A DNA stretch of 16,054 bases from IMG/VR virus record IMGVR_UViG_2585427735_000006, positions 1 to 16,054 of that record; one strand, given 5' to 3'. The notes below the pieces were generated by a model that worked only from the letters and a program-made list of their open reading frames with translations, was not told where the DNA came from and ran no database searches. The translations under genes and the position numbers were made by a program. The stretch comes from a virus. Its lineage: Duplodnaviria > Heunggongvirae > Uroviricota > Caudoviricetes. Positions 13,772 through 14,086 of the stretch are shown in pieces (position 1 is the stretch's first letter; every line of letters starts with the position of its first letter).

Positions 13772-14020
13772 TTAGTGAACAAACCACTCGTCAGCAGACT
13801 CCCAGGTATCTTTCAGAGTTTCCTGAACAAAAGTTTTAGCTGAATCTTTATCGGCGGTGCGCGTAACAGAAAGGCCATCGTTGCTGGTGGCTTTTACGAT
13901 CACCTCTACATCGTCATAACGCTTACTGATGCGCCGAGTTAATTCTTCCTTTAACGCATCCACAGCACCGTTTGGCATTTTAGTCATTTTCTCTTTGGCT
14001 ATGCAGATCTCAATACGCAT
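13772..14020 (-). CDS. dinI: DinI-like protein (DinI family, SOS-inducible RecA modulator)
   Basis: 82-aa reading frame starting at an internal Met of the listed 136-aa ORF ([42 protein letters not shown]…[16 protein letters not shown]). The length and the C-terminal TWESADEWF motif match the DinI family. It has ribosome-binding site GAGGG, and LexA boxes and a promoter lie just upstream. Confidence 0.85.
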
Positions 14021-14035
14021 AAAAATCCCTCTACA

Positions 14036-14086
14036 CTGTGTTTGTATACAGGTGTTATTTTTATCTGTATGGATAACCAGTGTCAA
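14036..14086 (-). promoter_or_regulatory. SOS-type promoter for the dinI-like gene with two LexA boxes: CTGTGTTTGTATACAG (14036-14051) and CTGTATGGATAACCAG (14065-14080); -35 TTGACA (14086..14081)
   Basis: Both boxes fit CTG-N10-CAG, and the first is a perfect CTGT-N8-ACAG. On the - strand a consensus TTGACA is followed by a 17-bp spacer containing one box and a TAAAAA -10-like hexamer. The second box lies between the promoter and the ribosome-binding site. Confidence 0.7.

Follow-up and report, generated by a model that had tools for sequence, protein, structure and literature searches.

The subject of this report is a DinI-like gene with its promoter, read on the minus strand of a 16,054-nucleotide stretch of DNA from a virus of the Caudoviricetes (IMG/VR record IMGVR_UViG_2585427735_000006, positions 1 to 16,054; hereafter the window). 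We read the gene as a phage-borne dinI paralogue that is repressed by LexA and would add DinI activity during the SOS response, and the phage as lambdoid, resembling the Shiga toxin (Stx) phages and integrating at yehV/mlrA, with the dinI-like gene as an accessory gene at the edge of its b region. Taken jointly, this reading has in our estimate a probability of about 0.8. The interval 13772–14086, to which a preliminary description of the same DNA had assigned the gene and its promoter, proved exact, and its proposal of SOS control through tandem LexA boxes is supported by scores in the range of validated LexA sites, by conservation of the predicted boxes across genera and by precedent in Salmonella. 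The gene with its LexA boxes is an already known, annotated and very common prophage gene, and as a rediscovery the finding itself matters little. Real potential for novelty at this locus is confined to a conserved, RNA-like element that follows the stop codon.

Promoter and predicted LexA boxes

The preliminary description had placed a consensus −35 element and two LexA boxes, one of them perfect, in front of the gene. The TTGACA hexamer is indeed present (Table 1), and along the minus strand the order is TTGACA, box 2, TAAAAA, box 1, GAGGG and ATG, with the two predicted boxes 29 bp apart from centre to centre, directly over the promoter. The core of box 1, CTGTATACAAACACAG (14051–14036), has no mismatch to CTGT-N8-ACAG and is perfect in that sense, whereas against the full 20-nt LexA consensus box 1 matches at only 14 of 20 positions, with AC..TG flanks. 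The core of box 2, CTGGTTATCCATACAG (14080–14065), carries one mismatch to CTGT-N8-ACAG, in a CTGG arm.

With up to one mismatch allowed, CTGT-N8-ACAG occurs 12 times in the 16-kb window against 6.1 expected, a number reached by 4 of 200 shuffles. Since this loose pattern is only mildly enriched, every position of the window (both strands, ~32,000 positions) was scored by heterology index (HI), with a matrix derived from the 18 E. coli LexA boxes that PMC3009722 lists in its Table 4. Box 1 (HI 7.47) and box 2 (HI 9.45) are the top two sites of the whole window, the next-best site outside the pair has an HI of 12.5, and 2 of 300 shuffled windows contain any site equal to box 1 or better. The validated E. 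coli boxes, each scored with itself left out of the matrix, have a median HI of 6.9 and a maximum of 12.8, so that both predicted boxes sit on the promoter with HI values in the range of validated sites.

The same promoter was compared among relatives, namely 80 close ones (viral contigs), 17 loci in species-representative genomes and 9 loci from three more distant protein clusters, which yielded 36 distinct promoters. Both LexA boxes fall in the validated HI range in 34 of these, and the layout TTGACA-box-(−10)-box-SD-ATG, where SD is the Shine-Dalgarno sequence, recurs in seven genera (Escherichia, Shigella, Salmonella, Pantoea, Trabulsiella, Mixta and Erwinia) over a range of 58–100% protein identity, the 58% being that of a tblastn best segment. 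Nearly all relatives have TTGACA or TTGATA as the −35 element, the −10 position reads TAAAAA, TAAACA or TAAATA, and the Shine-Dalgarno sequence is conserved as AGAGGGA or AGGAGGG. Similarity ends immediately 5′ of the −35 element, where at least five unrelated upstream contexts are found. The CTGT and ACAG arms are constant while the N8 spacers drift (for example TTATCCAT, TTATTTAT and TTATTTGT), which is the signature of LexA sites and not of simple recent ancestry. In most other E. coli copies box 2 matches CTGT..ACAG perfectly, and of the E. coli copies examined, the window copy and the type found in VT1-Sakai (AP000400.1) are those with the weakest boxes (HI ~8–10 versus 0.7–6.5 in the others). 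The centre-to-centre distance is 27–29 bp in E. coli copies and 24–28 bp elsewhere, and this variability argues against strict helical phasing.

Experimental precedent exists in Salmonella prophages, where replacement of the LexA-box region of the Gifsy-2 dinI homologue abolished induction by mitomycin C (PMC3121763) and where the Gifsy dinI homologues rise 5–23-fold with nalidixic acid (PMC8072944). Thus, regulation of the window gene by LexA as part of the SOS response is supported, as a prediction from its sequence.

Table 1. Positions of the dinI-like gene, its predicted control elements and the element downstream, in window coordinates
Feature	Position	Strand	Basis or remark
−35 hexamer TTGACA (consensus)	14081..14086	−	promoter scan
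−10-like TAAAAA, 17-nt spacer	14058..14063	−	promoter scan, 10/12 matches
Alternative −10 AAAAAT, 18-nt spacer	14057..14062	−	promoter scan
Predicted LexA box 1 (proximal), ACCTGTATACAAACACAGTG	14034..14053	−	over the predicted start site and leader; ends 13 nt 5′ of ATG
Predicted LexA box 2 (distal), ATCTGTATGGATAACCAGTG	14063..14082	+	fills the −35/−10 spacer; abuts the −35
Shine-Dalgarno sequence GAGGG	14027..14031	−	6 nt 5′ of ATG; read from sequence
dinI-like coding sequence, 82 amino acids	13772..14020	−	ATG 14020–14018, stop TAA 13774–13772; list of open reading frames and sequence, Pfam, PHROG, PDB, fold
Conserved structured 3′ untranslated region	~13671..13771	−	alignments, stem covariation, fold energy, identity versus 4-fold sites

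The DinI-like protein and its predicted part in induction

The preliminary description had assigned the 82-amino-acid product to the DinI family and had named a profile search and a fold prediction as checks; DinI was found by both. The Pfam profile DinI (PF06183) matches with E = 1.2e-19 and 70.8 bits (cut-off 24.2) over profile positions 1–63 of 63, and PHROG 189 (‘RecA filament binding protein DinI’) with E = 4.4e-31, although this profile has 151 positions, of which the protein covers only 71–149. A sequence search of the PDB matched the E. coli DinI chains 1GHH/7YWA over the full length (E = 8e-13). An AlphaFold2 model built with 20 homologues as input (predicted local distance difference test score, 75) has strands at residues 2–8, 39–45 and 51–55 and helices at 19–32 and 59–80, in the β-α-β-β-α order of the DinI fold. 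In a Foldseek search of the PDB this model gave template-modelling (TM) scores of 0.75 to 1GHH and 0.74 to 7YWA (DinI on the RecA filament), and no other comparable fold was found there, the next matches having E > 0.08. A longer open reading frame (ORF) of 136 amino acids, starting at an ATG at 14182, was rejected, as it would cross the promoter and the LexA boxes and the homologues are all of 82 amino acids.

A cryo-electron microscopy study of RecA with DinI (PMC9926225) describes a DinI pocket of L13, L21, W71, W77 and F78 that takes up RecA loop L2, and an acidic patch of E24, E69 and D76. The pocket residues align with M15, L23, W73, W79 and F80 of the window protein and the acidic patch with E26, D71 and E78, so that at each of the eight RecA-contact positions the residue is either identical or conservatively exchanged. 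Among 20 homologues of 67–98% identity, M15, L23, W73, W79, F80 and E26 are invariant, while position 71 varies among D, E and N and position 78 between D and E. With about 45% identity to chromosomal E. coli DinI and a score of 72.5 bits, below the cut-off of 111, for the NCBIfam DinI equivalog NF007893, the protein is by sequence a paralogue and not an orthologue of chromosomal DinI (b1061), with which the RefSeq name ‘DinI-like family protein’ agrees.

We propose a course of events in which binding by LexA, induction by damage, binding to RecA and the resulting physiology are all inferred. In a lysogen the gene would have its own sigma-70 promoter, which host LexA would block at two sites, the spacer and the start site, and the gene would therefore be silent independently of the phage repressor. 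Upon DNA damage RecA would be activated, LexA would cleave itself and the promoter would be released; early opening is expected of this promoter, since its boxes are weaker than those of the other E. coli copies examined. The hydrophobic pocket would then receive RecA loop L2 while the acidic patch would meet RecA K232/R243/K245, and, given the intact contact residues, the protein should dock in the groove of RecA on single-stranded DNA, stabilise filaments and compete with other clients. The docked protein would occupy a site that UmuD, LexA and CI-type repressors also need, and the net effect of such an extra, LexA-timed DinI dose would be to damp late outputs of the SOS response, among them the processing of UmuD and perhaps the cleavage of repressors.

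Some points weigh against the reading of the gene as a LexA-repressed dinI paralogue that adds DinI activity. The −10 element is weak, and its register, with a 17- or 18-nt spacer, is ambiguous. The score below the equivalog cut-off, together with the ~45% identity, means that quantitative behaviour on RecA may differ from that of DinI, whose own role is dose-dependent and debated, a stabiliser at low dose and an inhibitor at high dose. Prophage induction was not significantly changed by non-polar deletion of the homologues in Gifsy-1 and Gifsy-3 (PMC3121763), and LexA-binding or expression data for the dinI copies of Stx phages were not found in the searchable literature.

Several other explanations of the promoter and the gene must be weighed. 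It is very improbable that AT-rich palindromes arisen by chance account for the LexA-like sequences and that the gene is constitutive or under control of the phage repressor. The excess of the loose pattern in the window and the mediocre HI of both boxes would be in keeping with such an origin; however, chance does not readily account for the two best sites of the window lying together on the promoter, for arms that are kept across genera while spacers and flanks vary, or for the experiments on the Salmonella homologues. Hardly more credible is a promoter that drives a LexA-controlled antirepressor operon in which DinI is a passenger (Gifsy dinI-gfoA/gftA-irsA; 186 Tum). This arrangement is proven in the Salmonella Gifsy phages and in 186/PSP3, the partial coverage of PHROG 189 shows that longer fused relatives exist, and VT1-Sakai has a further small ORF, H0002, downstream. 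In the window, however, the protein is DinI only, with no N-terminal extension, and between its stop codon and the convergent tail fibre assembly gene (tfa) lie ~100 nt of conserved, RNA-like sequence that is non-coding and includes an 11-bp hairpin. Downstream there is no minus-strand ORF of at least 40 amino acids with a plausible start, except frames antisense to tfa, and a module of the Gifsy/186 type is thus ruled out within the window. An effect on the phage’s own induction, which the preliminary description had suggested with a hedge, is plausible; that the gene mainly sets the phage’s own induction threshold, the LexA-timed protein vying with a CI-type repressor for the RecA groove so that lysis is delayed or sharpened, is a more doubtful proposition, to which we give a minor share of the probability. 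DinI and lambda CI use the same RecA L2 loop and positive patch (PMC9926225), the RecA-contact residues are conserved in the window protein, the same idea has been raised for Stx2a phages (PMC8456039), and lambdoid prophages very commonly carry the gene, the median being 3 places per matching E. coli genome. The unchanged induction after the Gifsy-1 and Gifsy-3 deletions speaks against it, but the Gifsy phages are induced by antirepressors and not by repressor cleavage, and that test is therefore not fully transferable. In addition, the phage repressor gene lies outside the window, so that the window does not give the repressor type, and a protein that acts in trans and is common to the host and several prophages cannot serve to tune any one phage in particular. 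Of these accounts, that of a LexA-repressed dinI paralogue that would contribute DinI activity during the SOS response has the best support.

The conserved element downstream of the gene

The first 100 nt after the stop codon are conserved like coding sequence in E. coli relatives. The 3′ untranslated region (3′UTR) of the window retains 76–86% identity to copies from Salmonella, Pantoea and another distant source, while the 4-fold sites of the adjacent coding sequence are saturated at 15–35%. The element generally forms a 6–7-bp stem, GGCUGG/CCAGCC, which in the window is made by GGCUGG (13750–13745) and CCAUCC (13711–13706) around an invariant core, CAUUCAAUACUCGCACUAUCGAA (13740–13718). An 11-bp terminator hairpin follows (13703–13671), whose loop, UUCUUGCAUACGA, is conserved and whose stem covaries. 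The window copy is slightly degenerate, since CCAUCC introduces a C·U mismatch into stem 1 and no U tract follows the hairpin; its fold has an energy of −28.5 kcal/mol (z = −2.9).

Over 94 distinct copies, stem 1 is paired at 92.6%, as compared with 23–47% when the partners are slid. Double changes occur in five of seven pairs (one pair is GC in 58 copies, AU in 27 and GU in 4), and the observed covariation was reached by 0 of 500 shuffles. As the sequences are related, this covariation is suggestive evidence for a selected structure. The G-U intermediates, which occur on the sense strand only, place the structure on the strand that is sense for dinI. The region would thus be a conserved, structured 3′UTR that ends in a terminator and is under selection, as in the Klebsiella DinR type, though the window copy has no U tract.

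At least 120 copies of the element are found in viral contigs, and they follow an 82-amino-acid DinI-like gene, a MsgA-type DinI gene, whose protein is 31% identical to that of the window, or no DinI gene. The MsgA-type copies with the element (e.g., loci L120, L129 and L133) have tandem LexA boxes in 17 of 17 cases, 24 bp apart. About 40% of the viral-contig copies follow no DinI ORF, and a LexA box precedes 0 of 38 copies that have no DinI upstream; some other DinI-like lineages have no such element. Of 5426 complete E. coli genomes, 2966 (~55%) contain it. Almost all of the listed places lack an annotation for it, except that a spurious ‘capsid protein’ pseudogene of 72 nt is occasionally called there. 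One isolated copy lies between zinT and a diguanylate cyclase gene in E. coli YZLc1-3 (L231, 1490–1561), with no annotated prophage gene within 1.5 kb, and RefSeq annotates it as such a 72-nt partial pseudogene; this is probably a spurious call on a prophage scar.

Rfam scans of the window copy and two better copies, at gathering thresholds and at E ≤ 10, found no family for the element on its sense strand. The sub-threshold matches in these scans were to Shigella CssrB (RF02799), covered the last 32–37 nt of that family and lay on the opposite strand only; in the window, the plus-strand hairpin of the tfa–dinI interval (13671–13702) aligns with the final 32 nt of CssrB at 36 bits (gathering score 76). 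A known RNA family was accordingly rejected for the element, and the resemblance of the plus-strand hairpin to the 3′ end of CssrB suggests that the hairpin is a bidirectional terminator. Identity with Salmonella IsrC was likewise rejected, as IsrC is antisense to the 3′ end of msgA and a different thing, and the sequence of the element had no match in the searchable literature. Against the ftsZ leader, which is the target of Klebsiella DinR, the element forms a duplex of −22.7 kcal/mol, with a shuffle mean of −22.0 and 42% of shuffles as good. This unremarkable complementarity led to rejection of DinR-like ftsZ targeting, and by target the element is not a DinR analogue.

The selected product of the locus might at least partly be RNA, either a regulatory RNA derived from the 3′UTR or a cis-acting stability or processing element, comparable to Klebsiella DinR, although we consider this unlikely. 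The stem-loop and terminator retain 73–86% identity where 4-fold sites are saturated, both stems covary with G-U intermediates on the sense strand only, the same element with tandem LexA boxes follows the distant MsgA-type subfamily, and DinR itself is a precedent (PMC10907235). However, the many copies that follow neither a DinI ORF nor a LexA box, the DinI-like lineages that are without the element, the lack of special complementarity to the ftsZ leader and the mismatch and missing U tract of the window copy all tell against such a product, and modular recombination could also spread a useful terminator. In its more specific form, that the element is a new SOS-induced regulatory RNA module of enterobacterial prophages, acting as a 3′UTR-derived small RNA or in cis on the dinI mRNA, the idea is tentative, with the odds well against it. 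The element is best described as a candidate SOS-linked prophage RNA or, alternatively, a selected terminator or stability module. If the former were true, prophages would add an RNA product of their own to the SOS response of the host, with two distant DinI subfamilies sharing boxes, ORF and element.

Genomic setting, prevalence and known relatives

The preliminary description had put the gene in the equivalent of the b region and opposite in strand to the tail genes, and both statements hold. On the tail side the plus strand carries a side tail fibre gene (10559–13072) and tfa (13072–13656); on the other side of the gene lies an intact, complete attP, beyond which the minus strand carries a tyrosine integrase gene (int) with an arm-binding domain (14304–15590) and a DUF1233 excisionase gene (xis; 15624–15878). 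The attP core palindrome, GTCACG-TTACGCG-CGTGAC (14244–14262), is the att site annotated in VT1-Sakai, which integrates in yehV, and because of this coincidence the attP core is the better interpretation of a terminator-like match at 14243–14263. Sequence homologous to the right ends of prophages reaches as far as 14271, and that homologous to their left ends sets in at 14246. These break points, together with the position of attP between dinI and int, indicate that the window is in vegetative (or circular) order. In integrated relatives no further gene separates the dinI-like gene from the host flank, which is yehU/T, yecD-aspS or prfC. In Salmonella relatives at prfC (L108–L110, 2501–5240) the dinI-like gene and the 3′ element are followed ~370 nt on, on the same strand, by a Cloacin/Pyocin_S bacteriocin-like gene of 690–706 amino acids.

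The att core is flanked by five ATGGGRCA repeats at 11-bp spacing, three at 14102–14131 and two at 14319–14337, which look like arm-type sites of the integrase. The window has six matches to ATGGGRCA, five of them in this cluster, and 0 of 200 shuffles reach six. The outermost repeat is 16 bp from the dinI −35 element, and the two on the int side lie inside the last int codons. Between the arm-type repeats and the att core are three copies of CGAAnTTCGTCGA (14143–14165 and 14215–14227), to which an accessory protein (Xis, IHF or Fis, for example) may bind. A ATGCCCCAT repeat block is found 5′ of the dinI promoter in prophages at different host sites (yehU/T versus the yecD-aspS flank; L104, 2390–2500, versus L102), and it could represent either arm-type sites common to integrases of different core specificity or a part of the dinI module. 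Elsewhere in the window, an Rfam match to IS009 (RF02111; 220 bits, 13415–13613 on the plus strand) lies wholly within tfa, and this ‘sRNA’ family is probably coding sequence in reality.

A 600-bp module around the gene (13672–14271) is found at 88–95% identity in more than 20 listed Stx1, Stx2 and related phages. An 801-bp query containing it has matches in 4768 of 5426 complete E. coli genomes, with a maximum of 11 matching places per genome and the median of 3 mentioned above. The DinI-type dose in the SOS response may therefore far exceed that of K-12 in pathogenic strains, which would bear on the antibiotic induction of Stx phages and on SOS mutagenesis. That the DinI of Stx (Stx2a) phages would limit induction is already in print (PMC8456039), and the prophage DinI-like gene is also discussed in literature on the evolution of quinolone resistance. 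No functional test of the DinI-like proteins of Stx phages was found in the literature searched; a ciprofloxacin transcriptome of enterohaemorrhagic E. coli lists chromosomal dinI only and is uninformative on prophage copies, and a bioRxiv paper on radioresistance, which deals with chromosomal dinI, is uninformative here.

Among known systems, the closest is H0001 of VT1-Sakai, annotated as ‘DNA-damage-inducible protein I’, with homologues in YYZ-2008, in phages of the BP-4795 type and in many Stx1/Stx2 prophages. The 600-bp module is 93.8% identical there, lies next to the yehV att site and has the same promoter and the same two boxes; the record annotates a ‘putative promoter’ and, on box 1, a misc_binding feature ‘LexA protein, putative SOS box’, while box 2 is unannotated. 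VT1-Sakai differs in the N8 spacer of box 1, CTGTACATAACTACAG, and in the presence of H0002, whereas the window runs straight into tfa. K-12 DinI (b1061; 1GHH, 7YWA) shares with the window protein its fold (TM 0.75), its length class and the RecA contacts, and the K-12 dinI box, ACCTGTATAAATAACCAGTA, has the orientation and place of window box 1, just upstream of the Shine-Dalgarno sequence. In contrast, only one box precedes dinI in K-12, where it covers the −10; the 3′UTR there is short and ends in a plain terminator, and the context is pyrC-dinI-bssS as opposed to tfa-dinI-attP-int, so that synteny is not shared. For the chromosomal dinI of Salmonella, PMC8072944 reports two boxes at distances of 19 and 42 bp from the ATG, as compared with 13 and 42 in the window.

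The dinI homologues of Salmonella Gifsy-1, -2 and -3 resemble the window gene in being prophage-borne and in having a LexA box ~13–19 bp before the ATG. They differ in lying 1.3 kb downstream of replication genes and not at an att end, in having one reported box and in being first in an operon with an antirepressor and irsA, none of which is present in the window. The MsgA-type genes of enterobacterial prophages also encode small DinI-family proteins and have tandem LexA boxes and the same 3′ element, but their protein identity to the window gene is 31% and their box spacing is 24 bp, as compared with 27–29 bp. For an RNA function attached to dinI, Klebsiella DinR (PMC10907235) is the only precedent: it is cut from the mRNA of chromosomal dinI, and the likeness lies in a dinI transcript under LexA control with a long 3′ end that functions as an RNA. 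The pairing region of DinR, which targets ftsZ, is a Klebsiella-specific stretch of the 3′UTR, whereas the element in the window is unrelated to it in sequence.

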